Notes under the pieces: generated by a model | Databases searched by the model: none | What the model was told of the DNA's origin: nothing | The model's input: the letters and a program-made list of their open reading frames with translations, nothing else | DNA from: Polyangia bacterium | GTDB taxonomy: Bacteria; Myxococcota_A; Polyangia; JAAYKL01 | Reading direction: 5' to 3' | DNA: 26,383 nt | NCBI GenBank assembly: GCA_050287845.1 | Contig: JBNKCR010000002.1 | Coordinates: 1 to 26,383, forward strand | In this document: piece by piece, positions 1 to 26,383 of the stretch | Numbering within the stretch: position 1 is the stretch's first letter | Layout: every line of letters starts with the position of its first letter | Position numbers and translations under genes: made by a program

Positions 1-201
1 GCCGATACCCAGATGCTCGTGATTGGAATTGACTTCCAGCCAGTACAGCTTCACCGGGTGTTTCTTCAGGGCTCTGGCAGCGGAGGCGCCAATGGCGTTG
101 CGAACGCCGGGGATGGGGGCAAACAGAAACTGTCTGTCCACAGTTCTCTGTGTCTGTTCGTAAACGGTATCCGGTTTGAACCAGCGCGGTCTTTGTCCCA
201 T
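1..201 (-). CDS. HUH Y1-type (REP-associated, RAYT-like) tyrosine transposase, N-terminal part; runs off the window start
   Basis: Not in the ORF track. Manual translation from ATG at 201, with SD AAGGAGG at 207-213 on the minus strand: MGQRPRWFKPDTVYEQTQRTVDRQFLFAPIPGVRNAIGASAARALKKHPVKLYWLEVNSNHEHLGIG, open to base 1. It has the SNHxHL HUH motif and the usual Y1 N-terminal pattern (R..P...Y....R...RQFL). Confidence 0.85.
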   Translation of the reverse strand, partial: MGQRPRWFKPDTVYEQTQRTVDRQFLFAPIPGVRNAIGASAARALKKHPVKLYWLEVNSNHEHLGIG

Positions 202-214
202 GGGAACCTCCTTC

Positions 215-239
215 GCAGGGAAAAACGATTTCTCCCTGC
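215..239 (-). promoter_or_regulatory. Stem-loop immediately upstream of the transposase SD
   Basis: Minus strand GCAGGGAGAAATCGTTTTTCCCTGC forms an 11-bp stem (one G-T pair) with a 3-nt loop, next to the SD. A second palindrome, GCAGAATTTCTGC, lies at 262-274. Function is inferred. Confidence 0.45.
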
Positions 240-282
240 TCGGATGCTTTTCAAATCTGTTGCAGAATTTCTGCGCTCAGAA

Positions 283-487
283 GGAAAAAAATCACTTCGA
301 GCGTTTGGTGCCGGGCGTTTGGTGTCGGGAAAGGAAAAAATCACTCCGGCCGTTTGGTGCCGGGCGGAAAAAATCACTCCGAGCGTTTGGTGCCGGGCGT
401 TTGGTGCCGGGCGTTTGGTGCCGGGCGTTTGGTGCCGGGCTTTCCGAGCGTTTGGTGCTGGGCGTTTGGTGCTGGTTTGGTGCCGGG
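283..487 (+). repeat. Family-1 scrambled tandem array, about 80 bp upstream of the left transposase
   Basis: Three copies of the GGAAAAAATCACTCCGAGC-like unit, interleaved with about 10 copies of GTTTGGTGCCGGGC or variants (starts 303, 317, 352, 385, 399, 413, 427, 450, 464, 475). Confidence 0.95.
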
Positions 488-565
488 GCGGATTCTGCCT
501 GGCGAAAAAGCATGCCATGGCTGATAATGTGTTTTACAGTGGAGCTGTAATGTATGTCTGTGAAT

Positions 566-608
566 GAATTTCGAGGAAGAATTTCGAGGAATTTCGAGGA
601 ATTTCGAG
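566..608 (+). repeat. Tandem microrepeat (GAATTTCGAG)x4
   Basis: Exact copies at 566, 579, 589 and 599, upstream of the kinase. Confidence 0.9.
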
Positions 609-840
609 TCAATTCTGATAAACCAATTTGTGATCGGCAACAGAGTAAGGTATCATATGTACGTATTATGATGTAACTCTGAAGGATGAGCAATACACAG
701 ACCGGTTCTCGAAGCAGCGTTTCGAAGAAAACCACAGCGAGAAGGAGCAGGTCGTCGAACTCGAATATCCCACTGTAAATTTCTCTTTCCCCCTGCGTGT
801 TGGCCGGTATGAGATCATTTATCCCATTTCCCATGGTGGC

Positions 841-2481: not shown

Positions 2482-2564
2482 AACTGGAATTTCACCTGTT
2501 TCGGCCACTGACCAATTATTGAAATCATGCTGTAAATCATCTCATTGTGATACTTGTCTAGATA

Positions 2565-3617: not shown

Positions 3618-3625
3618 GGAGCGGA

Positions 3626-4894
3626 ATGAATCGTCATTGCAAATGTGGCAAACCAGGAAAATCGGCAAAGGATGTAGCGGGATGTATATCGTTGAAAATT
3701 CTGTTTTCAGCGTTGTTGCCATTGGTTCTGGTTTGTGGCTGCATCAGTTTTGATATTCCATCCCAGGTGGATACGGAAAGCCCCAGTGAGGCAACCGTCA
3801 CGACCACGGATGCCGATTCAGACACAGCCACATCATCTGATTGGCAGTCTGATTGGCAGTCTGATTGGCAGACAGATAATGATTCAACCACCGGAATCAC
3901 AACGGATATTGATACGAAAGATGATACGGACACGAATACAGACGACATTATCTCAACTGACACTGATGTTGTGCAGGATACACTGACCGACGACGACACA
4001 GTCGAAACCACTGATCCACAGGTGGATACGCAAAGTGACGTTGAATCGGACAGTACATGGGAAACGGAATCAAATCCGGATACGGACAGCGATTCGGCAC
4101 CGGATACTGAAACCGATTCCGACACCTTCGATGACACGGACATTTCCATTATCATCGACACCGACTCACTATCTGACATCGGCGGGTTCAATTCCAGACC
4201 GGTGGTGATTCCCACACTGACCGAGACCGGCGGCACGGGAACCGTAACCTCGCTGGGCGGTGTATCGGAACCGAAGCCGAGTTCCGGTGGTGCGTGCAAT
4301 TACGGTGTCACGAATATTTACAACTATGCCGCGATTACCGTGAACCACGAGGCTGGAGATGGTCAGGGTCAGTGGGATGGTGGTCGAATCTGCGGGCAGT
4401 GCGCAAGGGTGGCGGTTCAGACGGCGACGGACGTTGAAACCACAGTAGTGCGCATCATGGACAGATGCGCGGATGATCTGTGCGGTATCGTGCTTGGCGG
4501 GAAACCGGCGTCTGAAGTGATGGGTGAGTTTCCGGGGATGTACTGGGGCGCCTGGCAGTTTGTGCCGTGCAACATAGATGAGCGTGTATCCGATGGTCCA
4601 CCCGCTATATATGTGACGGAAGGATCCAGTGACTGGTGGTCCAACATCCAGATTCGCAACCCACCCGCTGCCGTGCTGTCCATTGAGTGGCAGACGGAGA
4701 GTGCATCCGGAGAGTTCGAGGTATCCAGCAGTTCAGAAAACTTTTTCGCCGTCCCGGCGCAAGTCTTGCAGATGACGGGGAACGTTACCCTCACTCTCAA
4801 TTTCGATTTTGACATTACCATCGTTCACGAGTTGAAAGGGACTGACATGACCGAAGAGAATACTTTGATTGAACTGCCGGAACCAATCAACTGA
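3626..4894 (+). CDS. Probable lipoprotein with Asp/Thr-rich linker and C-terminal expansin-like module (DPBB + CBM63-like)
   Basis: ATG 3626 follows GAGGAG; LVCGC is lipobox-like. D1 motifs GGACNYG, YAAI, CGQC and RIMDRC; D2 motif EGSSDWWSNIQIRN. Contains a perfect 12-bp x3 repeat (SDWQ) at 3836-3871. Confidence 0.8.
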   Translation: MNRHCKCGKPGKSAKDVAGCISLKILFSALLPLVLVCGCISFDIPSQVDTESPSEATVTTTDADSDTATSSDWQSDWQSDWQTDNDSTTGITTDIDTKDDTDTNTDDIISTDTDVVQDTLTDDDTVETTDPQVDTQSDVESDSTWETESNPDTDSDSAPDTETDSDTFDDTDISIIIDTDSLSDIGGFNSRPVVIPTLTETGGTGTVTSLGGVSEPKPSSGGACNYGVTNIYNYAAITVNHEAGDGQGQWDGGRICGQCARVAVQTATDVETTVVRIMDRCADDLCGIVLGGKPASEVMGEFPGMYWGAWQFVPCNIDERVSDGPPAIYVTEGSSDWWSNIQIRNPPAAVLSIEWQTESASGEFEVSSSSENFFAVPAQVLQMTGNVTLTLNFDFDITIVHELKGTDMTEENTLIELPEPIN

Positions 4895-4902
4895 GACGAC
4901 CT

Positions 4903-5037
4903 GGAAAAAATCACTCCGAGCGTCTGGTGACTGGGGGCTGGGAAGCGTCTGGTGCTGGCTTGGAAAAAATCACTCCGAGCACTTGATGCCTGCCACTTGA
5001 TGCCCGGGGAAAAAATCACTCCGAGCGTCTCTGGTGC
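4903..5037 (+). repeat. Family-1 scrambled tandem array
   Basis: GGAAAAAATCACTCCGAGC at 4903, 4962 and 5008. Tails are GTCTGGTG, ACTTGATG or GTCTCTGGTG, with partial re-duplications. Confidence 0.95.
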
Positions 5038-5161
5038 GAGGCTTTCAAGTCCTGTACTTTTTTTGAAATAGCCCACCCATAAGTGCACTGGCTTCCGCGT
5101 GGTGTTCTTCCAACCAGTGGCTAAACGCTTTCTCGTTTCTGAAAAATACAGCGTCTATCAT
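5038..5161 (-). pseudogene. YdeI/OmpD-associated-family gene remnant, frameshifted and 3'-truncated
   Basis: ATG 5161 overlaps the hydrolase stop (ATGA). It reads MIDAVFFRNEKAFSHWLEEHHAEASA, then after a 1-nt shift near 5085 LWVGYFKKSTGLESL. This matches the YdeI-family N-terminus as I recall it (FF.....F..WL..NH.....LWVG.YKK.TG..S). The sequence then runs directly into the repeat array. Confidence 0.8.
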
Positions 5162-6090
5162 TGTGCCAACCAGTTCAATATCGCCTGATTGGTTTCTGCC
5201 GGTTTTTCCTGTTGAATCCAGTGACCGCAATCCAGGTTGACCACATCGGCATTGGGCACGAATTCTGTCAGTTTTTCAGACTTCGGGATCACATCCCGGT
5301 TGCCGTAGATCATGAGTGTGGGCTGCTGGATGACTGGGTTCACGTTCGCCAACAGGTGCCAGTTGCGGTCGAGGTTTCTGTACCAGTTTATGCTGGCTGT
5401 AAATCCTGATGACTCGAAGGCGGAGACGAAAACAGCCAGATCGTCCTCGCTCATAATGGGGTCGCCGAGTGGTGTTTCAGCTGTGGCGAGATAAATCATC
5501 ACCATCCCCGGCGGCGGTCTCATTTGCGGTAAGTTCTTTCGGAATATATTGCGAAGGAACCGGGAGGTGTTTGCTTCCAGTACAGCGTCTGCGACCCCTG
5601 GTTGTCGATTGAAATGGACAAAATAATAATCTCCACCGAATATTTCTTCCATCCACTCAATCCAGGGTTTCTCTCTACGTTCCTGGTAAGGCACACTCAG
5701 GTTTATTACTTTGCTGACCCGGTTCGGATGCAATAAGGTCAGCCACCAAACGACCATTGCCCCCCAGTCATGGCCGATAAAGATTGCATCATCGTATCCA
5801 TAGTGGTCGAGAAGGGCGGTGAGATCGCCAGCCAGGTGTTCGATGTCATAATCGGTAACTTCCGTTGGTCTGGATGAGTTGCCATAACCGCGCTGGTTGG
5901 GGACGATGACGTGGTAGCCTGCTTTAACGAGGGCGGGCACCTGATAACGCCAGGTAAACGCATGCTCGGGCCAGCCGTGGCACAGCACAACGGGCTTTCC
6001 TGTATTTTGTCGGCCTGCTTCAAAGACTTCGAGTGTTACACCATTGACCGAAATAAGGGTAGGCCGTGGAAAATCTGATGAATTGGTCAC
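5158..6090 (-). CDS. Alpha/beta-fold hydrolase, epoxide hydrolase (EphA-like) type
   Basis: HGWP oxyanion motif, GYGNS, GHDWG nucleophile, lid tyrosines (DYY, NWYR) and CGHWIQQE catalytic His. GTG 6090 was chosen because AGGAGG lies at 6098-6103. Confidence 0.92.
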   Translation of the reverse strand: MTNSSDFPRPTLISVNGVTLEVFEAGRQNTGKPVVLCHGWPEHAFTWRYQVPALVKAGYHVIVPNQRGYGNSSRPTEVTDYDIEHLAGDLTALLDHYGYDDAIFIGHDWGAMVVWWLTLLHPNRVSKVINLSVPYQERREKPWIEWMEEIFGGDYYFVHFNRQPGVADAVLEANTSRFLRNIFRKNLPQMRPPPGMVMIYLATAETPLGDPIMSEDDLAVFVSAFESSGFTASINWYRNLDRNWHLLANVNPVIQQPTLMIYGNRDVIPKSEKLTEFVPNADVVNLDCGHWIQQEKPAETNQAILNWLAQ

Positions 6091-6151
6091 TACATTACCT
6101 CCTGTCACGAGATGCTATTGGAATGTGATGTTATTGGAATGTAATGTAGTG

Positions 6152-6172
6152 ATGCGACAACAGTATGTCATG
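6152..6172. promoter_or_regulatory. Putative operator, GACA-N6-TGTC palindrome
   Basis: GACA ACAGTA TGTC at 6156-6169, about 65 bp upstream of the hydrolase start. A 16-bp direct repeat GATGYTATTGGAATGT (6111-6142) lies next to it. Operator role is inferred. Confidence 0.45.
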
Positions 6173-6231
6173 TTTGAGTGAAGAAAAGTTCTGTCGCTTC
6201 AGTGATGTTTTTCATGCAGAAAGTTGATGCG

Positions 6232-6573
6232 AGGTACCCGGATTCAGTCTGTTGGGTGGTCTGGGAAAAGCACCTGGGAAAAATCACTCCGAGCACTTGA
6301 TGTTGCACTTGATGCTGGGCTTGGCTTGGGAAAAATCACTCCGAGCACTTGGGAAAAGGTACCCGGATTCAGTCTGTTGGGTGGCCTGGGAAAATCACCT
6401 GGGAAAAATCACTCCGAGCACTTGATGTTGGCACTTGATGTTGGGCACTTGATGCTGGGCTTGGCTTGGGAAAAATCACTTGGGAAAAATCACTCCGAGC
6501 ACTTGATGACGGGCACTTGATGACGGCACTTGATGACGGGACGGAAAAATCACTCCGAGCACTTGATGACGGG
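6232..6573 (+). repeat. Family-1 scrambled tandem array with a higher-order duplication
   Basis: (G)GGAAAAATCACTCCGAGC at 6276, 6328, 6401, 6482 and 6543, plus partial copies. CACTTGATG occurs about 9 times. The flank AGGTACCCGGATTCAGTCTGTTGGGTGG is duplicated at 6232 and 6357. Confidence 0.95.
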
Positions 6574-7304
6574 TTGAGCTGCATTTTAACGGTGTCGCCG
6601 TCGATGATGTCGACGATGGTTCCGGGGTAGCAATAGCGTTCGCCGGGGGAAATCTGGACGGTGCTGTATTTTCGGGAGGACTGTTGCTGAATGTAGCCGC
6701 CCGGGGTTGCGTCGGGGCAGTGGAGCGCTGTGGCGTGCTGTATATTGAATCCCAGATCGAGGATGTATTGACCATTTGAGGTAGGGGGCAATGCGACGAT
6801 TCTGTAAATACCTGGTCGGGCCGTCCTTGGCGCAAGGGAAAATTCTGCCGTCCCGGAGTGGTGCGTACGGCGATGATGGGCAATCAATTGAATCAGCTGT
6901 TCTTTGGTGAGTTTTTCGTTGATAGCCCGCTGTTCGAGGGTGTTTCTGACATCCGGGTTTTCGATGCCCGAGAGCGCCCGGTAGTGGCTCCAGCTCAGGG
7001 TGGGATTCAGCTGTGAGGCGGCGTAACGCATAGCGAAGTTTCGAAAGTAGCCGACGGTGCGCGGAGCAAAGCCATCACCGTATTTTTGAGTAAGGTCGGA
7101 ACTGAGGTTCCGGATGATTTTTTTCCCGTATTGCCCGCTCTCCCCATGGGGACGGACCATCTGCAGAATGCATTGGCCAATCTGCCAATATGTCATGAGC
7201 GTATCGGCGCTCCGTTCGGTGCTGTGAACCAGTGTTTTATCGTACAGATGGCAGATGTTTTTCAGTAATCGGGCGTAGTCTTCGGGATCAATCCGGACGG
7301 TCAT
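6369..7304 (-). pseudogene. DUF1016 (YhcG) N-terminal domain + thermonuclease (SNase-like) fusion, truncated at about 6574 by the repeat array; the ORF reads through repeats to a stop at 6369
   Basis: ATG 7304 with AGGAGA at 7311-7316. DUF1016_N motifs TYWQIG, YGKKIIRNLSSDL...YGDGF and LSWSHYRAL. The SNase start YCYPGTIVDIIDGDTV is followed at once by repeat-encoded SSSARSDF units. Confidence 0.8.
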
Positions 7305-7572
7305 CGGCGTTCTCCTGAACCGGCTTCTGTGGGTCGCCTTCTGTGCCACGAAATATTCTGGTGCATTCGAGTGGACGGAATGGCGATTTTATGTTTATGA
7401 TTCATGTTCTTCCCATTCCGATTTTTAATCGGAAAATCAATTACAGTATAGATGAATTTTGCACCTGGGTGCAAGGTGTGTAAACATATGTGTCCTGTGT
7501 GGTATCTGTGGTATAGATGCTATCTATGATGTCTGTTGCACAGCAGAACTTTTGCCGGTATCACTGACGTGG

Positions 7573-7682
7573 GCGGAAATCCGGCATCTTTATGCTTTCG
7601 TCCTCAGTCCCTCGGTCGATGTAGCGATGGTACACCTCGGTCGGGCCTTGCGGGCGCGCATTAAACCTGCTTATATTTCCGC
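7573..7682. repeat. About 110-bp imperfect palindromic (MITE-like or structured) intergenic element
   Basis: Terminal inverted repeats GCGGAAAT/ATTTCCGC. Nested pairings TTTATGC/GCATTAAA, CGTCCTCAG/TTGCGGGCG, GGTCGA/TCGGTC and TGTA/TACA around a central loop. Confidence 0.55.
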
Positions 7683-7777
7683 GATTTCGCTGACGGAATC
7701 AAACCGATCGCCGCTCCAACGGGCAGCGTCCATGGATTGTTTCGCAAGACGGCCTATCCGATCTGCCACCACGAATG

Positions 7778-7824
7778 GCCTGCTGCGTCCCCTCCGCCTC
7801 TCCGCCTGCTGCGTCCCCTCCGCC
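7778..7824 (-). repeat. Family-2 mini-array
   Basis: GCCTGCTGCGTCCCCTCCGCC at 7778 and 7804. Its reverse complement contains GGGGACGCAGCA, identical to 25999-26010. Confidence 0.85.
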
Positions 7825-7890
7825 CTTCGGTGTGTTCAGGCCGGTGTTTTTCGCGAGTGTGCCGCCCCGGGAAAAGGCGCAGAGGATGAA

Positions 7891-8346
7891 TCAATTGCCC
7901 TGGGCGAGTGCGATGCCGACGCTGTCTGCCAGCCGGAGTGCGGTCCAGCCGCAGGCGACGATGACGGTGAACAGCAGGAATGCCATCGCGATTCCGGCTT
8001 TTCGGAGTTTCCGCCTCGCCACGATTTGAACGGCCATAAAAGCAGGAATCAGAACGACACTGATGAGGGTGGCAATCTGCAGAGAGATCGGCAGCATCAG
8101 CATATCGAGGCCGCCGTCGGCATACTTGATTTGAAATGCAACACCCATGGCGGTGGTGCCGATGCCATACACCCAGGCCGCCACATCCATTCCCAGCCCT
8201 GAGGGGGAAGTTCGGGTATTGGTGAGACCGATGACGCCGATGGCGGTGCCGATGATTGCGAAAGCGATTCCCAACCATCCGAAAAAGCCGGGGATATAAA
8301 ACAGACAGAGTCCTGAAATGGTTAAAACCATTGCTGTTGTATTCAC
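7891..8346 (-). CDS. Hypothetical integral membrane protein
   Basis: 151 aa with 4-5 hydrophobic segments. The GTG start lies 3 bp after the tag stop, so it is probably co-transcribed. Confidence 0.75.
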   Translation of the reverse strand: MNTTAMVLTISGLCLFYIPGFFGWLGIAFAIIGTAIGVIGLTNTRTSPSGLGMDVAAWVYGIGTTAMGVAFQIKYADGGLDMLMLPISLQIATLISVVLIPAFMAVQIVARRKLRKAGIAMAFLLFTVIVACGWTALRLADSVGIALAQGN

Positions 8347-8349
8347 GTG

Positions 8350-8964
8350 TTACCTCTGGGGGGTTGGGGACATTTTCTGAATTTCATTGTACCTGAAACA
8401 GTTGGTCAGGTGGTCGTTGACCATCCCGGTGGCCTGCATGAAGGCGTACATTACGGTGGGACCGACGAATTGAAAACCTCTTTTTCGAAGGTCTTTGCTG
8501 ATTTGTCCGGACAGCGCCGTCTGGGCGGGGATTTCCGATATGTCCTGCCAGCTGTTCTGAATGGGAGTGCCTTCTGTGAAATGCCAGTAATACTCGGAAA
8601 AGGAGCCCCATTCCGTCTGTATTTCAATGAATTTTTGCGCGTTGTTCACGGTGGCTTCGATTTTTCTGCGATTTCTGATGATGCCGGTATTCTGGAGCAG
8701 TTTCTGAATTCTGGCCGCTGAAAATCTGGCCACCTGTTCGATTTGATAGTTGGCGAATGCCTGGCGGTATCCGTCCTGCCGTTTCAGAATGGTAATCCAG
8801 CTGAGTCCGGCCTGGGCGGTTTCCAGCACCAGAAATTCGAACAGTCGTTTGTCGGAAACCACCGGCACGCCCCAGACTTCGTCGTGATACCGGATGTACG
8901 CGTCATCCCCCTGGCACCACGGGCATCTCCGGGTTAAAAAATCGGGATTATTTGCGGGTGTCAT
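8350..8964 (-). CDS. tag: DNA-3-methyladenine glycosylase I
   Basis: RCPW, YHDEVWGVP, LFEFLVLE..QAGLSW.TIL.R, IIRNRRKI, GFQFVGPT..YAFMQA.G.VNDH...C. Confidence 0.97.
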   Translation of the reverse strand: MTPANNPDFLTRRCPWCQGDDAYIRYHDEVWGVPVVSDKRLFEFLVLETAQAGLSWITILKRQDGYRQAFANYQIEQVARFSAARIQKLLQNTGIIRNRRKIEATVNNAQKFIEIQTEWGSFSEYYWHFTEGTPIQNSWQDISEIPAQTALSGQISKDLRKRGFQFVGPTVMYAFMQATGMVNDHLTNCFRYNEIQKMSPTPQR

Positions 8965-9066
8965 CGGTTTTTCTCCCTGAAAATGAAATTGCTTTTATCT
9001 GTAGACAAACCAAATGAACAGAATAAAAATGTCGTTCCCCAATTGCCCGGAGAGCGCGAGGTGAAT

Positions 9067-9807
9067 ATGCAGAAAGTATCCAATTTTATCAAGACGGTAT
9101 GGGTAGTGTCGTGGTGGATGTCTGTGTCCGCTATTATATGGTTGCCGATATTTCTGACCGGTTTCTTTTCGAAAACCGGACGCCTTTCTTTTCGCCTGTG
9201 TCAAATCTGGGTCTGGATTGCCAAGGGCGTCACATTTACCCGGGTGGAAACAGTGGCCAATCCGAAAGTGGATAAAACCAAATCATATGTGATTGTTTCC
9301 AATCATCAGTCGCTGCTCGATATTCCGGCGCTGATGCTGAATACCGGGTTGCAGTTCCGCTGGGTGCTCAAAAAGGAGCTGGGGTATATTCCCTTTTTCG
9401 GTTGGGCGCTCTGGGGGGCGCGGCATATTCTGGTGGACCGGTCCCGGCCTAAACGCGCGCTGAAAAACATGAATGCCGCGGTGAAGAATCTGCCACCGGG
9501 CGTGAGTGTGATGGTTTTTCCGGAAGGCACCCGTTCCGATTCCGGCGAGCTCGGGGAATTCAAGGTAGGTGGGTTTCTCACGGCCATTTCATCGGGACTG
9601 CCCATTTTGCCGGTGACCATCAATGGCAGCTGGAAGCGGATGCCGAACAAAAACAGTCTGGCGTTTCATCCCGGGAAGATTCAGCTGGTGCTGGGAGACC
9701 CCATCGACACCACACAATATTCGAAAAGAGAAATAGCCAGGCTGATCCAGGACTCCCGAAACGCCGTTGCGTCCCGACTCAATCCCGAATATCCCGAAAA
9801 AAAATAA
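9067..9807 (+). CDS. plsC: 1-acyl-sn-glycerol-3-phosphate acyltransferase (LPLAT family)
   Basis: NHQSLLD (HX4D), KKEL..IPFFGW, VDR, FPEGTRS and PILPV motifs. ATG 9067 follows GAGGTG. Confidence 0.92.
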   Translation: MQKVSNFIKTVWVVSWWMSVSAIIWLPIFLTGFFSKTGRLSFRLCQIWVWIAKGVTFTRVETVANPKVDKTKSYVIVSNHQSLLDIPALMLNTGLQFRWVLKKELGYIPFFGWALWGARHILVDRSRPKRALKNMNAAVKNLPPGVSVMVFPEGTRSDSGELGEFKVGGFLTAISSGLPILPVTINGSWKRMPNKNSLAFHPGKIQLVLGDPIDTTQYSKREIARLIQDSRNAVASRLNPEYPEKK

Positions 9808-9886
9808 CAATTCTATACGAAAGACAGGTTTGGTCTCGTATAGTAATATTTCAAATGGAATCTTATCCGTGTTGCGGGAGGTTTAT

Positions 9887-11584
9887 ATGTATTCCAATAA
9901 AGGTTTAGAATTCTTAAAATTGTTGATCACTGCACTACTTCTTCTGTTGGCAGTTTCCTGCGCTGAGGGGGACAATCAGAAACCCGGAGACACGAAAGAT
10001 AGCGGTTCGGATACGGGGAGTGATTCCGGTACCGTTGGCAACACCGATACGGATGACGATACGGATACGGACACGGATACCGATACGGACACGGATATTG
10101 ATACCAATTCGGACACAGGTACCGATACGGATACCGATTCGGACACAGACACGGATACGGATACCGATTCAGCCACTGGGAATGACAGCGACACATCGAC
10201 GGATACTGAATCTGAAGTGGAGACCGAGCCGGTAGATACAGGAGAATGTACACCGGAAACCGTGGAAGAAGATTGTGGTGCCGATATGGTTTGTACCCCC
10301 AAAGGGGAGTGCTGTACTTCTGCCTGCGACGGTGGCTGTCAGACCTGTTCCGCACCCGGTTCGGATGGCACCTGCATTACCATGGCCGAAACTGAGGTGT
10401 GCAGACCCATGGCCGGTATCTGTGATGTACTGGAACGCTGTGACGGTGAGAGCACGGAATGTCCGGCGGACATCGTGCAGAAAGGCGCTATCTGTCGCGA
10501 GGCCGTGGACGAGGAATGCGACTTTCCCGATAGATGCGACGGCGAGTCCGCTCAGTGTCCCGCAGACAAGGTGAAGGAAGAAGGATTTGAATGTGGCGAC
10601 ACCACCACCAATACCGATTGTGACAAGCCGGATAGCTGCGATGGTAAAGGGTATTGCAGCAACAACTGGCTGCCCGACAACAGTCTGTGCGGGGGGGGCG
10701 GCACCACCGAATACCAATGCAGTACGGCGGATTGCGATGCCAACGCCCAGAGTCGCGTGGTGGGCGAAGCGTGTCAGCAGGGAGTTTGCGTCAGGAACAT
10801 GAACCCGGATTGGCAGGATATTCAGGAGTGCACTGAATTCCAGATTTGCGCAGCGGACGCCGATGGCGCGTCCTGTGTGGACTGCAGCGAAGTGCCCGAT
10901 GACGCCTGTGATGGCGATACCCGCCTCTTCTGGGACATCGAAGCCGGTATCTGCACCGTGGAAGACGACGAGCGGGTATGCTACTACGAACAGTCCACGG
11001 AGGATTGTGAAGAGAGTTTTAATTGTGTACGTGGAGAATGTGTTCCCTATACTTGTGCGCCCGGCGAGAAAGAGGGTGTTTTCACATGGAATAACGAAGA
11101 CCTTGAAGGGTGGACGATTGGAACGAATTGGGGATTCAGAGGGTATTACCCATGGGGTGCTTCCTCAGACGAAACGTATTTCGAGTTTCCGGGAGAAGAT
11201 GCAGCGACGATAATTGATCCTGATGATGAGGAAAACTATCTGATTTCTCCATTGTATGAGTTTTATGCCTGTTCAGAGGGTGAAGCCACATTTCACTTTA
11301 TCGGTGAGTATCAGCCCCCGTCCGAAGCGTGTGAGGCATCCAAATTTGTGCTTGAATGTGGTTCCGAAGATACTTGGGTGGAAATATGGAATGATCCCCA
11401 TGGTTTAGAATTCGAGGATCCTAAGTTGAAAACAGCTGTCCAGTACACTTATACGGTTGACATCAGTGACTGCTTTGGTTTGACCGAAGTGTATTTTCGC
11501 TTTAGACCAGTTGATTATTGCACGTCGATGATGGGATTTTGGATTGACAATTTCTCTTTTGAGGCAGTGCAAGTGGAAGAGTAA
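9887..11584 (+). CDS. Lipoprotein with (DT)n linker, disintegrin-like Cys-rich repeats and an acidic C-terminal probable beta-sandwich domain
   Basis: ATG 9887 follows GGGAGG; lipobox LAVSC. Repeats CRPMAGICDVLERCDGESTECPAD and CREAVDEECDFPDRCDGESAQCPAD. The C-terminus has L.SP...VYFRF...GFWIDNFSF. Confidence 0.85.
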   Translation: MYSNKGLEFLKLLITALLLLLAVSCAEGDNQKPGDTKDSGSDTGSDSGTVGNTDTDDDTDTDTDTDTDTDIDTNSDTGTDTDTDSDTDTDTDTDSATGNDSDTSTDTESEVETEPVDTGECTPETVEEDCGADMVCTPKGECCTSACDGGCQTCSAPGSDGTCITMAETEVCRPMAGICDVLERCDGESTECPADIVQKGAICREAVDEECDFPDRCDGESAQCPADKVKEEGFECGDTTTNTDCDKPDSCDGKGYCSNNWLPDNSLCGGGGTTEYQCSTADCDANAQSRVVGEACQQGVCVRNMNPDWQDIQECTEFQICAADADGASCVDCSEVPDDACDGDTRLFWDIEAGICTVEDDERVCYYEQSTEDCEESFNCVRGECVPYTCAPGEKEGVFTWNNEDLEGWTIGTNWGFRGYYPWGASSDETYFEFPGEDAATIIDPDDEENYLISPLYEFYACSEGEATFHFIGEYQPPSEACEASKFVLECGSEDTWVEIWNDPHGLEFEDPKLKTAVQYTYTVDISDCFGLTEVYFRFRPVDYCTSMMGFWIDNFSFEAVQVEE

Positions 11585-11759
11585 AACACTCCCGGTGCGT
11601 TTTTACTCTGCCCCAATCGCTTTCCTTGAAACCATTCTTTTTTTTGCAACAATTTCTCCTACCGGTCGAACGGCAATGCGTCATCGCAGATGATGGTTTT
11701 CAGATTTTGTTGGATTTGCTAGAAAAACCGAATGACCGTTCACAACAGAGGAGTAAGAG

Positions 11760-17885: not shown

Positions 17886-17944
17886 CTCTTCATTCCAGTT
17901 CCGTGCAATCAGTGCCTATGATTTCCACCCCGCTTTCAGTATAG

Positions 17945-18223
17945 TCAGTCTTCGAATGTGTAGTGCTTCTTCACCGCTTTGCGAATATCCCAGGTGCAGC
18001 TCATGCCTCTGGGGAAAGTGACCAGGTCGCCTTTTCCCATCTGAACCGGTTCCCCTCCCTCGGGGGTGACCACCACCTCTCCTTCCAGAAAATAGCAGGT
18101 CTCGGTGGTATCATAGGTCCAGGGAAACGTTGATGCTTCTCTGGTCCAGATGCCCCATGTGGCAATGCCCTCCTGTTTCAATGCATCCTCTGACGGCTGT
18201 CTGACGACTTTAATGGTACCCAT
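17945..18223 (-). CDS. Small cupin (DUF861/EutQ-like cupin_3 family)
   Basis: W.IW..E.S.FPW.Y...ETCY.LEG.V.VTP.......GKGDLV.FP.GM.CTW.I...V.KHY.F; ATG follows AGGAG. Confidence 0.92.
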   Translation of the reverse strand: MGTIKVVRQPSEDALKQEGIATWGIWTREASTFPWTYDTTETCYFLEGEVVVTPEGGEPVQMGKGDLVTFPRGMSCTWDIRKAVKKHYTFED

Positions 18224-18667
18224 GTGATTCTCCTATTCGTACGCGCCCGGTATGATGACACCGGGCACAAATTATATTTTCAGTTTCAATTCTATGTGAA
18301 TGGGGAGATTACGCCTGAAAATCTGAAAATTTGCAAGGATTGAAGGGGACAGCGGGAAATCGCAAAGTCCCAAAGCGCCAAGGAACATCCCCGACTCCGA
18401 GGAAAAACCGGGGCAACGGCTTCCGTGTTATTGCCGATGTAAATATTCGGAACACGTTGCGTCGTGGGATTTTACGATGCAGGAGATGCGAATTTCAGAG
18501 GACTTTTCCTTTTCCTGGCACAACCTGACACATGTCTATCTGTGGGCGAACTGATAAATCTGAATAAAAACAGAGCGATGTGATACCGGCCACGGAGGAT
18601 GCGTCGGTGGCTCGAAAATTGCGGAGTTGCTGGACCATCAATTTGATTCGGCTGAAAGGAGCAATTG

Positions 18668-21169
18668 ATGTATCTTCAGAAAATATTTCATTGCATGGTT
18701 TTTTTCGTGGCATTGGTTTTCGGTGGCTGTGTCAGCAGTTCCGACAATAATGCACGGGATACGAGTGAGGCGGACGGTTCGGAATCCGGCGCGGGTGATT
18801 CCGGAGAGGAACTGGACTATACCGGTGAGTCGGATTCGCAGGCTGACACGTCGGATGATTCGTTCGGTGTCGAGAGCGGTTCGGATACTGGCGATACCGG
18901 TGATGAGACCGACGTTGGCACTGATTCGGAGGTTTCCAGAGAAACGGACTCCAGCGACGTTATGGATTCTGGCGACGAAACGGATTCCGGGGAGGCCGGT
19001 ACCGATACGGTCGTCGAGTTGGATACGTTCACCGATGACGACACCGACACACAGGAAACCGCTCCCCGGGCGAACCAGTCTCTGGCGCCCGTGCAGGATT
19101 GCGATGCCGCCTGGACGATTCTTCGGGAGAAGTTTGTCGATGACATGAAGGTGGTGGTGGAGCGCAACCGGCAGGTGGTGCTGGAACACCGGGCGATGTC
19201 GGTGGAGGAATGCGACGACTGGTATGACGACTACTACAGCGATACCGATACCGATACGGACAGCGATGCGGATACGGACGCCGACGGGGATATCGACGAA
19301 GAAAGCGGCGGTGATGAGGACGAAGAGGGCGCTGACGAATACTCCACCACCAACAATCAGGTGGAAGGCGTGGATGAAGCGGACTTTCTCAAAAACGACG
19401 GCAGCTATATTTACATTCTGGCGGATGGCGCATTTCAGATAGTGGATGCATGGCCTGCAACGGAAGCGCGGGTGGTGTCGAGAACACCGATTGAAGGGGT
19501 GCCGAAAAAGCTGTTCATTTATGAGAACAAAGCGTTTGTGTATTCGTCTCTCACGCCCCTCAGCACTACCGACGCAAATTTCAACTCCGTCAGATACAGT
19601 TCGGGGGAATGCACCTATGGGTATGACTGCGATTTTGTGGGAGATGGACGGGATTTGAAGATTACCGTGCTCGATATTTCGGATGTGACAACACCGAAGG
19701 TCATTCGCGAAACCAATATGAACGGGTCGTATCTCAATGCGAGGCGCATTGGAAACGTGGTGTACACCGTGGTGGTGTTTCCCGAGCTGGTGCATTCGAT
19801 GCCAAGTCTCCGGTACATCCCTTCCGGTGTCAGCAGCTGGGCGTGCGGGGAGTCTCTGGATGGCACCGCCGACGAATTGAACGCGGCATTTGACGCACTG
19901 ATTGAAGAGAACATCGCGACCATTGACGCATTTGATTTTGAGGCCACTCTCCCCACCATTCATGACCGGTTGATGTCCAATGGACAGGTGCTGAACAACG
20001 CCACCCTGCGCGACGATTGCAGTCGTTTCAGTGTGTCCCGGACCGCGGACGGGTACAACCTGATTACCGTGCTGGGGTTGAATCTGGAAACATTCTACAA
20101 TTACACGCTGTCCAGTGTGCTATCAAAACCCGGTGCAGTTTATGCCGATGGCGATTCGCTCTATCTGGCCATGCGCCATTATCGCAATGCCATGCCCACC
20201 TGGTTTTACAACGACAGTGCGGGGGTGACCGAGGCAACCACCATCCATAAATTCGCCCTGGACAACGACTATGCCCAGGCCACGTACCAGGGCAGCGGGG
20301 TGGTGAAAGGCCGCATCCTCAATCAGTTCGTCATGGATGAATACGAAGGTCATCTGCGGGTGGCCACCACCACGGGACGGGTTCCCAGCGCCAGTGTTCA
20401 CAGCACTCTTTCTGTTCTCGACGTGGAAACTGAAGAGAATCTGGTGCTCACCGGAGAGGTCGATAATATCGCGCCCACCGAAGATATTCGTTCCGCAAGG
20501 TTCAACGGCGACCGCGGATTCATTGTCACTTTCAAGAAAACCGATCCGCTGTTTGTGTTTGACCTGAGCAATCCCGCTGAGCCTTCCATCACCGGTGAGC
20601 TCAAGATTCCCGGATTCTCCACCTACATGCACATGATGGATGACACCCACATTCTGTCCATTGGATTCGATGCGGAGGATGCGGGCATCCGGGCGTATTT
20701 CCAGGGAGTGCAACTGCAGATTCTGGACATTACCGATATTGCCAATCCCACGCTGCTGCATAAGGAAGTGATCGGCACGCGGGGGTCCACCTCTGATGCG
20801 GCCACGGACCATCTGGCGTTCAACTATTTCAAATCATTCGATCAGCTGGCCATTCCCATGGTGGTCTGTGAGGAAAGTTCGGGCGGGAGCGACTACGGCG
20901 ACGTGATGACCTTCAGCGGACTGATGGTGTACAACGTGACAGTGGAAAACGGATTCACCTACCTGGGGGGTATTCCCCACGGAACGCCGGAAGTGGATGG
21001 GTACCAGACCGGTTTCTGCAACAACTGGTGGTCCAGCGGCAACTCTCAGGTGAAACGAAGCATCTTCATGGATGAATATGTGTATTCCATTGCCCCCGAC
21101 CTCATCAACGTCTCCGAGGTCTCCGACCTGGCACATCCCGTTTCGTCCGTCACCCTCGTGACTCCCTGA
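18668..21169 (+). CDS. Lipoprotein with acidic linker and secreted beta-propeller domain (Beta_propel family)
   Basis: SD AAAGGAG; lipobox FGGC. Signature YSTTNNQVEGVDEAD..KNDG, plus NQF.MDEY.G.LRVATT, RF.GDRG..VTFKKTDPLFV.DL and GELKIPGFSTYMH. Confidence 0.9.
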   Translation: MYLQKIFHCMVFFVALVFGGCVSSSDNNARDTSEADGSESGAGDSGEELDYTGESDSQADTSDDSFGVESGSDTGDTGDETDVGTDSEVSRETDSSDVMDSGDETDSGEAGTDTVVELDTFTDDDTDTQETAPRANQSLAPVQDCDAAWTILREKFVDDMKVVVERNRQVVLEHRAMSVEECDDWYDDYYSDTDTDTDSDADTDADGDIDEESGGDEDEEGADEYSTTNNQVEGVDEADFLKNDGSYIYILADGAFQIVDAWPATEARVVSRTPIEGVPKKLFIYENKAFVYSSLTPLSTTDANFNSVRYSSGECTYGYDCDFVGDGRDLKITVLDISDVTTPKVIRETNMNGSYLNARRIGNVVYTVVVFPELVHSMPSLRYIPSGVSSWACGESLDGTADELNAAFDALIEENIATIDAFDFEATLPTIHDRLMSNGQVLNNATLRDDCSRFSVSRTADGYNLITVLGLNLETFYNYTLSSVLSKPGAVYADGDSLYLAMRHYRNAMPTWFYNDSAGVTEATTIHKFALDNDYAQATYQGSGVVKGRILNQFVMDEYEGHLRVATTTGRVPSASVHSTLSVLDVETEENLVLTGEVDNIAPTEDIRSARFNGDRGFIVTFKKTDPLFVFDLSNPAEPSITGELKIPGFSTYMHMMDDTHILSIGFDAEDAGIRAYFQGVQLQILDITDIANPTLLHKEVIGTRGSTSDAATDHLAFNYFKSFDQLAIPMVVCEESSGGSDYGDVMTFSGLMVYNVTVENGFTYLGGIPHGTPEVDGYQTGFCNNWWSSGNSQVKRSIFMDEYVYSIAPDLINVSEVSDLAHPVSSVTLVTP

Positions 21170-21189
21170 TTCCAGACATTCCCGACATG

Positions 21190-21400
21190 TTGCTCCACCC
21201 CCGATGCGTTGCTCCGTCCCCGACACGCTTGCTCCGTCCCCGATGCGTTGCTCCGTCCCCGATACGTTGCTCCGTCCCCGACACGTTCTTGCTCCGTCCC
21301 CGACACGCTTGCTCCGTCCCCGATACGTTGCTCCGTCCCCGACACGTTCTTGCTCCGTCCCCGATACGTGTCCTTGATATGTTGCTCCGTCCCCGATGCG
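21190..21400 (+). repeat. Family-2 tandem array, 10 units of 19-22 bp
   Basis: TTGCTCCGTCCCCGA (first copy variant) at 21190, 21209, 21229, 21248, 21267, 21289, 21309, 21328, 21350 and 21382. Tails are TGCG, CACGC, TACG or CACGTTC. The reverse-complement core is GGGGACGGAGCA. Confidence 0.95.
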
Positions 21401-21492
21401 TTTCGTGGACGTTGTTGCGTTGCTGTAAACTTTCGAATATACTGTTCTGAATGCATGACAACCGAGAGCACACTACGGAAAGCGAGGCATCG

Positions 21493-23445
21493 ATGACGCG
21501 ATTTCTGACGATTGTTTCATTGTGGATACTGACAATCCTGGCGCTTGCCGGCGCCGGATGCAGCGATGACAGTGGCAGCGGCAAATCCGGTCAGACCGAT
21601 ACCGGTATCGGAAATTCCGGCGATACGGCGACGACTCCGGATACGGGGACCGCGACCACTGCAACCATCGCCACTGAAACCATCATCGGCGTCGATACCG
21701 CGAGCGCAGCGGACACCTCGGCGCCGCCGGACACGGCCACTGATGCCGACAGCGCCACGGCGACGGACACCGGGGCGGAACCGGATTCCGATTCAACTCC
21801 TCCGGTTTCCGACTGTAATGACGGCATAGACAACGACAGCGACGGCTATGTGGACTGGCAATATGATCTGGGTTGTGTGAATGGAAATGATGACGAAATC
21901 TCCGGGACACGGGCGGAAGAAAACGGGTTTACCACTTTCGACGTGGGACCGGAAAGCGTTGTGATTTATGTGAGCGCGCAGACGGGGGAGGACGCCAACG
22001 ATGGGTTGTCGCCCGTTTCGCCGGTCAAGACCCTGTCTCACGCCGCGTCGCTGCTTCGGGATGGAGAAGGGGACTTCATGCTACTTCGGCGGGGAGATAC
22101 ATGGCGGGGGGAATCACTCGGACGGTTTTTCTCCGGCCGGGATGCCGAACACCCCATGGTAATTGCGTCCTATGGAGACAGCACGGACATGCCCCGGGTG
22201 GAAATCGATACCAACTTCATTGACCATAATGGTAAGGTTCGAAATTACGTGGCAATCGTCGGTCTGGAACTGGTGTCCTATCCCCTCATTCCCGGTGACC
22301 CGGCGTACGATGGTGAAACCGGCGGTGGATTCCGCTATGTCGGCGGCGGCACCCATCTGCTCATCGAAGGTTGCCGGATGACCCATGGTGAACTGGTGGT
22401 GCAATCGTACGGGGACGACGCTCACTACGAAGACGTGGAAGTCCGTCGCAACGTCATCGAACTCAATTATCATATCAACACCTGCGGGCAGAACAATGAG
22501 TTCCGGCCTTCGGGGATGTATTCCTCTCATGTGACCGGCCTCACCATCGAGGGAAACATTTTTGACCACAACGGTTGGAATGAAGACGTGGCATCCGCCT
22601 GCGCCACCATGTACAATCACAATATGTATCTCAACGCCGATAACCTCATTGTTCGGGACAACCTGATTGCCCGGGCATCGAGCATGGGCATCAAGATGCG
22701 CTCCGATGAAACCGGCGATGCGGACACCCTTCTGTTTGAGAACAACTTTTTTGTGGATGGCGAAATCGGAATGGGAATAGGCGGCAATACCGAAAACCCC
22801 CATCGCTTTTCAAATGTGACCATCCGGAACAATGTGTTCAGTCAGATTGGTCTTGGAAATCCCACGGAACGAAATTTTGCCTGGATGCTCGAAGTGTCCG
22901 ATGTGCTCACCGCAACCATCGACAGCAACTATTTCCTGCATCAACCGTGGTATTCCAATGCGTATGGCATTTCGCTGACCGGCGGGTCCACTGGCGACAT
23001 TACGGTGTCCAACAATGTATTTTTCGATTTGGCATCCCGCTCCCTGCGGGTGCAGGTGGCCGAGAACTGGGGCATGATTACCGTGGCCAGCAACACATTC
23101 GTTGATATGGCCCACGATTCCTGTCTGGTGAACCACCAGGGGGATTTTGCCACCGTGCAATATCAGAATAACCGCTACTACAGCAGTGAATCCACGGACT
23201 GGTTCTGTGGGGATGTGGCCGGCACATTGGCGGATTGGCAGGCTGGCGCCGGCGAAACGGACGCTGCCCAATGGTCGGGGACATTCAGCGATCCGAATCG
23301 AACCATCAGTTCATATGCCGAAAGCCTGGGGTTGGACGCGTCCCTCGAAGGATTCCTCGCCGCTGCCAGAGAACAATCCAGACTCAACTGGAACAGTTCG
23401 TTCACCGCGCCTGCCATCAACAATTACATCAAATCCGGATTCTGA
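21493..23445 (+). CDS. Lipoprotein with Asp/Thr/Ala linker, Ca-binding-like CNDGIDNDSDG motif and right-handed parallel beta-helix (pectin-lyase-like) domain
   Basis: ATG 21493 follows GAGG; lipobox GAGC. IYVS...G.D.NDGLSP..PVKTL..A, LRRGD.W and P.VI.SYG, plus repeated I.NN.F/IEGNIF Asn ladders. Confidence 0.85.
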   Translation: MTRFLTIVSLWILTILALAGAGCSDDSGSGKSGQTDTGIGNSGDTATTPDTGTATTATIATETIIGVDTASAADTSAPPDTATDADSATATDTGAEPDSDSTPPVSDCNDGIDNDSDGYVDWQYDLGCVNGNDDEISGTRAEENGFTTFDVGPESVVIYVSAQTGEDANDGLSPVSPVKTLSHAASLLRDGEGDFMLLRRGDTWRGESLGRFFSGRDAEHPMVIASYGDSTDMPRVEIDTNFIDHNGKVRNYVAIVGLELVSYPLIPGDPAYDGETGGGFRYVGGGTHLLIEGCRMTHGELVVQSYGDDAHYEDVEVRRNVIELNYHINTCGQNNEFRPSGMYSSHVTGLTIEGNIFDHNGWNEDVASACATMYNHNMYLNADNLIVRDNLIARASSMGIKMRSDETGDADTLLFENNFFVDGEIGMGIGGNTENPHRFSNVTIRNNVFSQIGLGNPTERNFAWMLEVSDVLTATIDSNYFLHQPWYSNAYGISLTGGSTGDITVSNNVFFDLASRSLRVQVAENWGMITVASNTFVDMAHDSCLVNHQGDFATVQYQNNRYYSSESTDWFCGDVAGTLADWQAGAGETDAAQWSGTFSDPNRTISSYAESLGLDASLEGFLAAAREQSRLNWNSSFTAPAINNYIKSGF

Positions 23446-23513
23446 GAACGAAAGGCTCTATCTCCCGGCAGGTTGGTGTTATACTATTGTTTGTCTGGAA
23501 TGCAGAGGCCAAC

Positions 23514-23972
23514 GTGAAACGAGAATTCAACAGTCCCGAAGAGATGTTTAAGCGATTGATGTACGTTCTGTATGTGGGGTGCGTTTTTTTCGGTTTCCTT
23601 TCTGGGGTGATGGGCATTCTCGGTGGACGGCCGGACGCCCTGATGGTGACAGGAATTCTGGTTCCCCTGGCGGTAATACTGAAATCAGTGGGGGTGAAAC
23701 GGCTGGAATTCAGGCGTCTGGCGGAGTCCTTTCCCATGGGGGGCGCCGAGGATGCGCTGGATACCGGGGTTCGCCAGCGGTTTCAGCATCTGATTGGGGC
23801 GTTCACCGCATCGGATAACTGGATAACGCGTCAGGAGATTCGCCGGGAAATGGGGCATCTGGCCCGGAAGCATCCGCTGCTGTTATCGGTGTATGAACAG
23901 GAAATCGAAAAAGTGCACCCGACCCTGCTGTTTTCACCGGCGCATGAAGCGCGTGACAGCAATCTCGATTAA
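23514..23972 (+). CDS. Hypothetical membrane protein (two TM helices)
   Basis: GTG 23514 follows AGAGG and reads MKREFNSPEEMFKRL..., then two hydrophobic segments and a helical C-terminus. The longer ORF from 23235 overlaps the previous gene. Confidence 0.65.
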   Translation: MKREFNSPEEMFKRLMYVLYVGCVFFGFLSGVMGILGGRPDALMVTGILVPLAVILKSVGVKRLEFRRLAESFPMGGAEDALDTGVRQRFQHLIGAFTASDNWITRQEIRREMGHLARKHPLLLSVYEQEIEKVHPTLLFSPAHEARDSNLD

Positions 23973-24147
23973 ACGGAAATTCACAACTGTTATGACGGGA
24001 CGTTATGCATCAGTACTGGCTCGGTGAGCCGTACAGTATGTAAAAAGTGATGGGGACGGACCGGGAGATGTGAATGGCGGATTCAGAGAAAGTAAGAATT
24101 CGAATCAGACGACACAGAATTTCGAATCCTACGCATCATCTGGCGCG

Positions 24148-25749
24148 CTATGGCAACTCTGCCGGGTCCATATTCCAGTCCACCCACATGCCTTCCCATT
24201 CGCTGACCGGCTGTTGAACTCTATCGTTCGGAATCTTCATGGCGGCAGTGTTTCCGGTTCCACCATTGAACGCCCTATCGAACATTGCTGCTGCGATGCC
24301 GGTATCGCCAACGCCGCAGTGTCCGCCACTGTACACTTCGAAGGCCATGTTGTTTTCAACACCGAGCGCTTTCCATACCGGTTGTGCTGCCCATGCAGAG
24401 AGCGCTTCGCAGGTTCCGCCAAGGTGACACCATGAGTTCGGACCATTGTCATTTGAAAAATGCACCAGATATCGCGGCGCAATCGTCGCCAGAAGGCAAT
24501 GCTGATCAATGGGAAGGTGATTTACCAGATCAGGCTGTGAACGGAGCTGTTTCGCCGCACTGGTCACCCATGGTCCGCAGATTCCGTTGTCTTCGAGGTT
24601 GTCAATGCTCTGAGGCGGGGAATCACATACCCATGACGATTGACCGCCTCCGTGCCGGAACCACTCTGCCTGTCGGAAGTTGGCTGCGCCGCCCCCTCCC
24701 GACTCCACGATAACGGTCATTGGAATACGACTGAAGACACCCACCAGGAAAGCACCTTTTCCACATCCGGAACATCCCGATACCGCCATCCTGGTTGGAT
24801 CATGTCCGCTATCGGGGTTTTGTTCCAGAACTTCAATCACTCTGTCAACCATCCATCCGGTAGCTACATTTGTATTCATTTCAGACAAGCCAAAGAGACT
24901 TTTAATCTTATTTTCAAACCCACTGCCAAACGACAGCGTTTTTCGGCTTGAGGGCAAAATTCCAGCCGACATGTCAATTGTAATCACATCGCCGGATCCT
25001 TCGATAGTAGCCGTAAAGTTCTCGGTTTTTGTGCCTTCCTTACAGGTGATTGAAATATTCCCTCCGGATACGGTTCCGGTTGTTTCGTCCGGTTCGAAGG
25101 GGTAAGGGCCGTAGATGTATTTTGATGCGATATACTGGATTTCCCGACGACGGCACTCCCACTGCGCTTTGGTTTTTACAGGCGTACCATCAAAAAACGT
25201 CAACGGATCGGGGAGTTTTTCGTTTCTGGGCAGGCTACCTACATCATCCGGTAAATCGGGGAAGGCACATTCAGAGATGTCGATGGGGCCGGTATCGGCG
25301 TCCGGGTCTGTATCGGTATCCGAGTCTGTATCGATGTCGGTGTCTGTATCGATGTCGGTGTCGGTATCTGAGTCGGTGTCGGTATCTGTGTCAGCATCCG
25401 GCGCTGTTGCGCCATCGCAGCAACGCTGGCCGCCATCGCAGGTGCCGTCCATCTGGGTACCTCCCCATGATGTACAATGGGGTAGGCACTCATATGCACA
25501 CCCGTCCGTGTCCGAATCCGTATCCGTATCGGAGTCTGTGTCCGTGTCCGTATCAGAGTCCGTATCAGAGTCAACGTCCGAATCCGAGTCAGTATCCGAG
25601 TCGGTATCAGAGTCGGTGTCCGAATCTGTATCCGTATCAGAGTCGGAATCTGAATCGCTGTCAGAACTGTCATTGGCCGCATCCACGCCGCACGCATTTG
25701 AAAGAAATGCCAATCCCAGCAGACACCAGGATAATAATAGCAGTCTCAT
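24148..25749 (-). CDS. Lipoprotein with (DT/DS)n linkers and CE15 glucuronoyl-esterase-like domain
   Basis: ATG 25749 follows AAAGGAG; SNAC lipobox-like site. Motifs [48 protein letters not shown] and GGHC. Confidence 0.85.
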
Positions 25750-25867
25750 CAGATATTCTCCTTTCATTCATTTATAAATAAAGGATTGCTCTACTAAAAA
25801 GCCCGGAAATAGTGGAACTGGCTCGGCAGAATGGGTGCGAATTTCTGTTTTCACGCTACAAGAGAGA

Positions 25868-26010
25868 GTCATAGGTCATAGAAGGTCATAGGGGACGCAG
25901 AGGTCATAGGGGACGCAGTCGTCATAAAAGTCGTAGAGTTCATGGGGGATGAAGCATCAATCATGTGGGACGCAGTCATGGGGGACGCAGAGGTCATGGG
26001 GGACGCAGCA
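25868..26010 (+). repeat. Family-2 scrambled tandem array, about 185 bp upstream of the right transposase
   Basis: GTCATR-GGGGACGCAG units with exact cores at 25891, 25909, 25981 and 25999. Two degenerate cores and several isolated GTCATA starts are also present. Confidence 0.9.
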
Positions 26011-26173
26011 CCACGTGACTCCACGCTGACTTCTGTCAACGCGTTACCGGAGCAACTCAGAACAAACGACAGGCAGTTGGCCGAAGGTGGCCATTTCTGA
26101 CCATTGGCCAGATTGCCCGCTTCTATGCAACGGTAATTATTCAATAAGGCAATTGGCCCGGTTTCTGCCTTCC

Positions 26174-26188
26174 CCTCCCGCCAGGAGG
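26174..26188 (+). promoter_or_regulatory. Hairpin occluding the transposase Shine-Dalgarno
   Basis: CCTCC-CGCCA-GGAGG: the anti-SD pairs with the GGAGG that lies 6 nt before ATG 26195. Confidence 0.5.
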
Positions 26189-26194
26189 ACGCGT

Positions 26195-26383
26195 ATGCGA
26201 AAATCAAGGCAACTTCAACTGGCCGATACCGGCATCTTTCATAAATTCTTCAGAGGACACAATGGAGAGCACATTTTCCCCACCGACGCAGAAAAGACGA
26301 TGTATCTCCGTTGTCTTCGCGACGCGAAAAACAACCATGGCATCAGTGACCACGTGCTGTTCTACAGTTACTGCATCATGTCC
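26195..26383 (+). CDS. HUH Y1-type (RAYT-like) tyrosine transposase, N-terminal part; runs off the window end
   Basis: Not in the ORF track. ATG 26195 follows AGGAGG and reads MRKSRQLQLADTGIFHKFFRGHNGEHIFPTDAEKTMYLRCLRDAKNNHGISDHVLFYSYCIMS. This matches the RAYT pattern (R..R....G..H...RG.N...IF..D.....YL..L ... YC.M(S)NHxH). The window ends just before the expected NHxH. Confidence 0.8.
   Translation, partial: MRKSRQLQLADTGIFHKFFRGHNGEHIFPTDAEKTMYLRCLRDAKNNHGISDHVLFYSYCIMS

Follow-up and report, generated by a model that had tools for sequence, protein, structure and literature searches.

Polar repeat arrays at the terminal inverted repeats of two multi-copy, TIRtron-type Y1/HUH elements in a Polyangia genome

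In the available text of Di Nocera et al. (2013, PMC3733652), TIRtrons are described as elements in which the gene of a Y1 enzyme, the TIRYT, lies between terminal inverted repeats that are unrelated to GTAG-type REPs. Another described group is subclass 2.1 of the TnpA-Y1 proteins, whose members, according to the accessible part of the survey by Quentin et al. (2018, PMC6006769), average 1.9 copies at 49% identity and have a C-terminal helix-turn-helix; a preprint, in its accessible portion, ties subclass 2.1 genes to prochlorosin clusters, yet retracts the causal claim. For E. coli TnpA-REP, a model of BIME amplification has been put forward (PMC3333891, accessible part), in which a host polymerase extends the 3'-OH left by a first cut, and the newly made strand is then cut in turn, its released 3'-OH attacking the end that is bound to the tyrosine; the legend of its Fig. 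7B presents the steps as shown in vitro or modelled. In the following, we describe two transposase families and their repeats in a Polyangia genome and compare them with these systems.

The DNA analysed here (the window, 26,383 nucleotides) is one whole contig (C2; JBNKCR010000002.1) of a 7.2 Mb genome in 159 contigs (GCA_050287845.1), and relatives of the genome's proteins carry Myxococcota or Deltaproteobacteria labels in their source records. A preliminary description had proposed that both ends of the window encode the N-termini of HUH/Y1 transposases, each paired with its own amplified motif. The two open reading frames, at 1..201 on the minus strand (with SNHEHL) and at 26195..26383 on the plus strand (ending in YCIMS), are present as reported and represent the first 67 codons of a type A gene and the first 63 codons of a type B gene, both cut by the contig ends. 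The contig broke at these points because both genes are multi-copy: type A is found at 17 places in the genome with 96–100% identity and type B at 10 places with 92–100% identity, and the summed contig depth, a rough measure, is 623 and 221 at the window ends versus 22–28 in single-copy DNA. Type B is complete in four places (242 residues), while the longest type A piece is an open frame of 302 residues; its full length is about 310 residues, as judged from a database relative of 310 residues that is 92% identical.

AlphaFold models of the A-type and B proteins (mean pLDDT 91.5 each) match the E. coli TnpA-REP structure first (PDB 4ER8; E 1.4e-6 for the 92% identical full-length A relative and 5.3e-4 for B), followed by TnpA of IS608 and ISDra2. 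When aligned, the two families share 20% identity (probability 98.8). The B family has an invariant H-x-H and an invariant YxxxNP motif (Y136/N140/P141); in the A family, N-H, Y126 and N130 are invariant, and the second histidine of HUH is often replaced in its relatives. By their predicted folds and the invariant tyrosine in YxxxNP, A and B are Y1/HUH proteins, as had been supposed, and belong to the TnpA-REP class. The check suggested at the time, the Pfam profile Y1_Tnp (PF01797), turned out to be of no help, matching neither the fragments nor the full A and B proteins, whereas B's more distant relatives do match it; the NCBIfam model NF047646 (REP-associated tyrosine transposase) gave matches below its cut-off (E 4e-9 and 7e-6). 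A search for related loci returned only two. In a locus filed under another organism label (L046), an A-type N-terminus is 100% identical over 45 residues.

The preliminary description had noticed only the left ends of these elements and had held that the motifs do not form inverted pairs. However, 200–300 bases past the stop codon of each gene, the same core recurs in inverted orientation with an array of its own, so that the two ends of each element carry its motif as a terminal inverted repeat. A and B are Y1/HUH genes between terminal inverted repeats, that is, elements of the TIRtron type, and this anatomy is well supported. In A, the two ends lie on different contigs, except for deletion copies (C17) and a relative on C141, where they share one contig. 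In the window, the A gene is preceded by a constant non-coding leader (202..287, minus strand; 17 copies with 91–100% identity and three more with about 79%) and by the left end at 288..488 (plus strand), which consists of the core AAAATCACTCCGAGC, a 10-base tip, a G run and nested restarts; the cores of this array (283–487) lie at 290, 339 and 372. Likewise, the B gene is preceded by a constant non-coding leader (26009..26194, plus strand; eight copies with 94–100% identity and one with 78%) and by the left end at 25868..26008 (plus strand), with nested restarts of the tip and the core GGGGACGCAG and five cores within 25892–26008. Mini versions of B and A, in which the interior is deleted but the two ends are retained, were also seen (G000:C89:31678-31821, C94:4426-5090 and C17:150313-152393).

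The proposal that each enzyme is associated with its own motif stands without exception: every one of the 41 attached A-type cores lies next to A-family DNA (A and the relative with 51% identity to it taken together), and each of the 18 attached B cores lies next to B DNA. Genome-wide, the family-1 core, that of A, has 66 left-type and 58 right-type matches versus 0–1 in two shuffles, and the right-type core of family 2, that of B, has 40 versus 1–2; the 10-base left-type pattern of family 2 is weaker, with 94 matches versus 37. The exact A core occurs 51 times here, four times and once in two other genomes, and never in the remaining 18 of the 21 family genomes. As had been anticipated, the core also tracks the protein tree (63 proteins and their flanks, quick method): the B clade keeps GGGGACGGAG-like cores at 46–50% protein identity, and the sub-clades of A differ in their variant of a single core, whose distance from the gene is conserved. 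Because the cores are short, the inverted-repeat score exceeds that of the loci's own shuffles in part of the loci only. A hairpin is absent, with folding z-scores of −0.3 to +1.1 for all eight motif strands, in line with the earlier reading; the reported lack of GTAG holds for five of the six arrays of the window, and the sixth (25868–26010) contains a single copy of the tetranucleotide, which lies within a decayed unit. A 16-base metagenome scan yielded 119 loci, of which one matches a transposase weakly and not one contains a real array; these are chance matches.

All six repeat arrays of the window were recovered where they had first been placed. Apart from the two attached ones, they are solo ends, with no element DNA inside. 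The solo A left end at 4903..5037 (plus strand, oriented as that at 288) has three cores (4909, 4968 and 5014) and two tip types; that at 6232..6573 (plus strand) has five cores (6282, 6334, 6407, 6488 and 6548), and one of its units duplicates about 63 bases, reaching into the inner, non-element DNA. The tip ACTTGATG is common to these two arrays and is found nowhere else in the genome. Between them lies an alpha/beta hydrolase gene (5158..6108, minus strand; Pfam), and a DUF1016_N gene (6574..7349, minus strand; Pfam) follows the second. The likeness of the latter to its paralogues stops at the outer edge of the array (residue 258), and one paralogue, in L031, has 345 residues; the gene is likely truncated at this edge. 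In family 2, 7778 and 25868 are left-end forms, and 21190–21400 is the right-end form: the solo left end at 7778..7824 (plus strand) has two cores CTGCGTCCCC (7783 and 7809), and the solo right end at 21190..21400 (plus strand) has ten cores TTGCTCCGTCCCC (21190–21394).

The window contains further repeats. Four short tandem AATTTCGAG units (566–608), a run unique in the genome, lie 80 bases outside the A array. At 7573–7719, there is a left-truncated copy of a non-coding element of about 190 bases with its own terminal inverted repeats, which occurs at some 35 places in the genome and, on C146, directly after a third kind of Y1-like gene. The commonest repeats of the genome, Asp-Thr/Asp-Ser coding repeats (3800–4150, 10040–10200, 12020–12160, 19240–19300 and 25290–25660), are unconnected with the transposon ends. 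Rfam gave no match.

The arrays were originally called scrambled, but their units are ordered and polar, with a fixed outer end and a variable inner start. Read outward, an end consists of the core and a short tip, followed in A by a G run and in B, as judged by eye, by T, and a unit ends about 12 (A) or about 7 (B) bases outside the core. Among the ends having a restart (of 35 A right, 31 A left, 59 B left and 19 B right ends examined, many of the 59 being chance matches), the distance from the core outward to the first restart is 8–12 bases for 20 of 25 A right ends, 10–12 bases for 15 of 24 A left ends, 4–9 bases for 9 of 13 B left ends and 5–9 bases for 8 of 10 B right ends; at random sites, a restart was found in 155 of 2000. 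This family-specific offset holds although the tips differ: in 16 A right ends, the 10-base tip varies about fourfold more than the last 100 inner bases (0.247 versus 0.062), and its outer five bases vary most (0.403). The first tip is reached by 74 of 83 units at A right ends, 45 of 80 at A left ends, 21 of 36 at B left ends and 16 of 26 at B right ends. Because the parser lets no unit end more than three bases beyond the first restart, these counts show just how often units do not stop short, and only the first-restart offsets are free of the bound. Units ending elsewhere (35 of 80 at A left ends, 15 of 36 and 10 of 26 in B) do so partly via tip mutations.

The inner starts, by contrast, range from the core edge to 147 bases inward. 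In A, G is their first base at 62 of the 83 distinct junctions and in 10 of the 11 far entries (0.35 expected), and the overlap at junctions is mostly 0–3 bases. The design recurs in relatives, which as kin are not independent: repeats were found in 39 of 89 flanks versus 5 of 81 control stretches, with 50 of the 89 flanks lacking an array, and the polarity was outward in 12 cases, inward in three and tied in 10. A third stuttering element, encoding a 296-residue protein with a weak Y1_Tnp match and about 24% identity to A, has its own end motif (G000:C141:236784-237671 and C136:28315-29199), and on G000:C128 three decayed A-type 5' ends are each followed by RHS-like fragments.

We consider it probable that A and B, as multi-copy TIRtron-type elements, encode enzymes that cut at a fixed outer distance and at loose inner sites, adding partial end copies in each round. 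Each enzyme would cut at a fixed distance outside its own core, about 12 bases for A and about 7 for B, and a second time further in, at sites that are only loosely specified. If the host then extended the DNA from one of these cuts and the strand was transferred to the other, each round would yield one partial end copy. The accessible account of the E. coli BIME amplification model would predict this array shape if one cut were fixed by the core and the other loosely specified. Nicking, re-synthesis and re-joining, as first suggested, would still be the best mechanism. The cutting, the state of the strands and the origin of the solo ends are inferred here, and the sequence is compatible with either strand being cut first. 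Solo ends may stem from the same reaction, through deletions that start just inside the core or through short end units that are joined to other DNA. Whole elements have presumably transposed as well, given the number of copies and the unrelated DNA around them. When complete elements are inspected, the tips and flanks on the left differ from those on the right, which led us to reject a target-site duplication, and no empty insertion site is among the joints listed for four runs.

Arrays also grow at ends without a gene. Solo are 27 of 68 A-type end clusters and six multi-core B clusters, a few single matches possibly being due to chance, and solo-end units duplicate local non-element DNA (window 6232, C6:29463 and C6:57690). 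Consequently, these arrays grew in place with an enzyme supplied from elsewhere, which bears out the earlier notion of growth in trans. Most solo A ends begin at a G about 20 bases inside the outer edge of the core. Array units, too, preferentially enter at this G, and it is the breakpoint in two A copies with internal deletions.

Alternatively, the arrays could have arisen by separate insertions, in which excised single-stranded end fragments of other copies are joined at an existing tip. Excision and integration correspond to model A in the accessible part of PMC3333891; tips known from other loci are mixed in the arrays of C6, C55, C138 and window 4903, and one array in C6 is interrupted by a foreign piece of 190 bases with a core at its end. 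These cases point to the occasional joining of pieces from elsewhere. However, most units repeat the local tip, and the solo-end units copy local DNA that belongs to no element, so that we regard separate insertions as an unlikely general explanation and the joining of excised fragments as probably a minor route of the same enzyme.

Less likely still is an enzyme-free origin by host replication slippage or recombination at the G-rich ends. Short units of 11–14 bases are often periodic, 1–3 bases are shared at junctions, and growth occurs where no gene is linked, all of which slippage would accommodate, but it does not account for an offset that is fixed per family across different tips, for single duplications of up to 147 bases with at most three shared bases, or for the excess of arrays near transposase ends over control stretches. 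We also give little credence to a domesticated REP-like system, in which the genes would be static and only the motifs would spread, serving a host function: while class 2 proteins are low-copy in the accessible part of PMC6006769 and many A-type end clusters are solo, such a system is at odds with the 17 and 10 nearly identical copies of the genes, whose flanks are unrelated, with their patchy distribution among relatives (for B, 5 of 300 other genomes of the class at E ≤ 1e-15) and with motifs that lack a hairpin.

The preliminary description had itself named an assembly artefact as a refuting case. Unitigs of run X1, possibly the source sample of the assembly, cover 3842–6300, 7643–10045 and 21335–26022 without any difference, the arrays at 4903, 7778 and 25868 each being spanned by one unitig, and a contig of run X2 matches window 4912–5074 exactly. 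That collapsed repeats made the arrays is hardly credible, since these three are spanned, each locus has its own tip and independently assembled genomes show the same design, even if the contig breaks inside both genes and no single listed unitig spans any of the arrays 283–487, 6232–6573 and 21190–21400.

Solo ends often lie close to other ends and beside genes that were probably gained laterally. Fifteen of the 27 solo A clusters lie within 5 kb of another A end, compared with a mean of 1.6 and a maximum of 10 in 2000 random placements, and 14 of these 15 share the orientation of their neighbour (mutual pairs counted twice). A replication-strand preference is seen for 21 of 25 A-left clusters when pooled, but per contig it amounts to 9 of 12 and 7 of 9 (p 0.15 and 0.18), and other ends show no bias. 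The hydrolase gene between the two solo ends of the window is absent from all 20 other family genomes at E ≤ 1e-40, while its product has 80–83% identity with proteins attributed by name to Bacillus, Chloroflexota and others; its GC content of 0.514 is not a foreign mark, and it was likely acquired laterally. The solo B ends at 7778 and 21190 form the left and the right edge of a block shared with G099; two long exported-protein genes (window 9767–13655) are present here but missing from the syntenic block in G099. A 1478-base piece that is 94% identical to G127 (background about 70–78%) has its start precisely at an A tip in this genome, and in G127 it abuts another GGGGAC-type end; a further piece, of 939 bases (89%), starts at a B-type tip in G127, and a Fic gene (86% identical) begins 10 bases past a B core. 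At C45, C121, C94 and window 20000–26383, where results were negative or uninformative, no high-identity piece bounded by an end was found. The position of solo ends at the edges of laterally moved single genes is suggestive only, because similarity tends to end between genes anyway and because accessory genes and mobile DNA gather together.

It is tempting, if doubtful, to see in this an integron-like capture by an HUH enzyme, in which gene-bearing single-stranded pieces with a cognate end would be ligated at the tip of a resident end. Such capture might, with similar reserve, string foreign genes together in a single orientation, with neither a tyrosine recombinase nor a hairpin being involved. 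The joints listed for four runs include neither a circle nor an empty site that would indicate excision or integration of a bounded gene. If the reading were true, it would constitute a route of gene acquisition parallel to integrons, and the one-orientation sites between single genes here do resemble an integron-like cassette system.

Although the motifs had been thought to stand apart from known systems, they are terminal inverted repeats of the described TIRtron/TIRYT kind. Like TIRYTs in the available text of PMC3733652, A and B are Y1 HUH proteins with a catalytic tyrosine whose genes lie between terminal inverted repeats unrelated to GTAG-type REPs, and the repeats are likewise dispersed as singles and clusters. 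The GGGGWSAS motif of some TIRtrons resembles the B core GGGGACG, which differs at position 7, and is unrelated to the A core. By contrast, that text describes no polar nested arrays or variable tips for TIRtrons, nor near-identical gene copies or same-orientation chains, and our literature search, which covered few subscription journals, yielded no publication that describes polar arrays at element ends or chains of solo ends. With TnpA-Y1 class 2, as far as PMC6006769 was accessible, A and B share the YxxxNP signature and the lack of REP hairpins; unlike subclass 2.1, they occur in 10–17 copies with 90–100% identity, show no helix-turn-helix Pfam match in five of five proteins and miss Pfam Y1_Tnp, the profile used in that survey. 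The REPtrons, that is, E. coli TnpA-REP with REP/BIME (PMC3333891 and PMC8266576, accessible parts), offer the closest solved fold (4ER8), action in trans, loose dinucleotide cut sites and an amplification model that yields arrays of the present shape, whereas here there is neither a GTAG foot nor a hairpin, the gene itself is multiplied and the repeats are element ends. IS200/IS605 elements (TnpA subclass 1.1) share the Y1/HUH fold and many near-identical copies per genome, but the present proteins have YxxxNP instead of YxxxQ and 242–310 instead of about 150 residues, and their ends are inverted cores rather than subterminal hairpins and are untidy rather than precise. TIRYTs are a sizeable group among the HUH enzymes of bacteria; the literature, in its accessible parts, describes no biochemistry for them and names repeat recognition as an open test. 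The present genome offers two recently multiplied, non-cross-reacting pairs of enzyme and end, with dozens of junctions that predict cuts to within a few bases, and thereby makes it directly testable how a Y1 enzyme acts in the absence of a hairpin.
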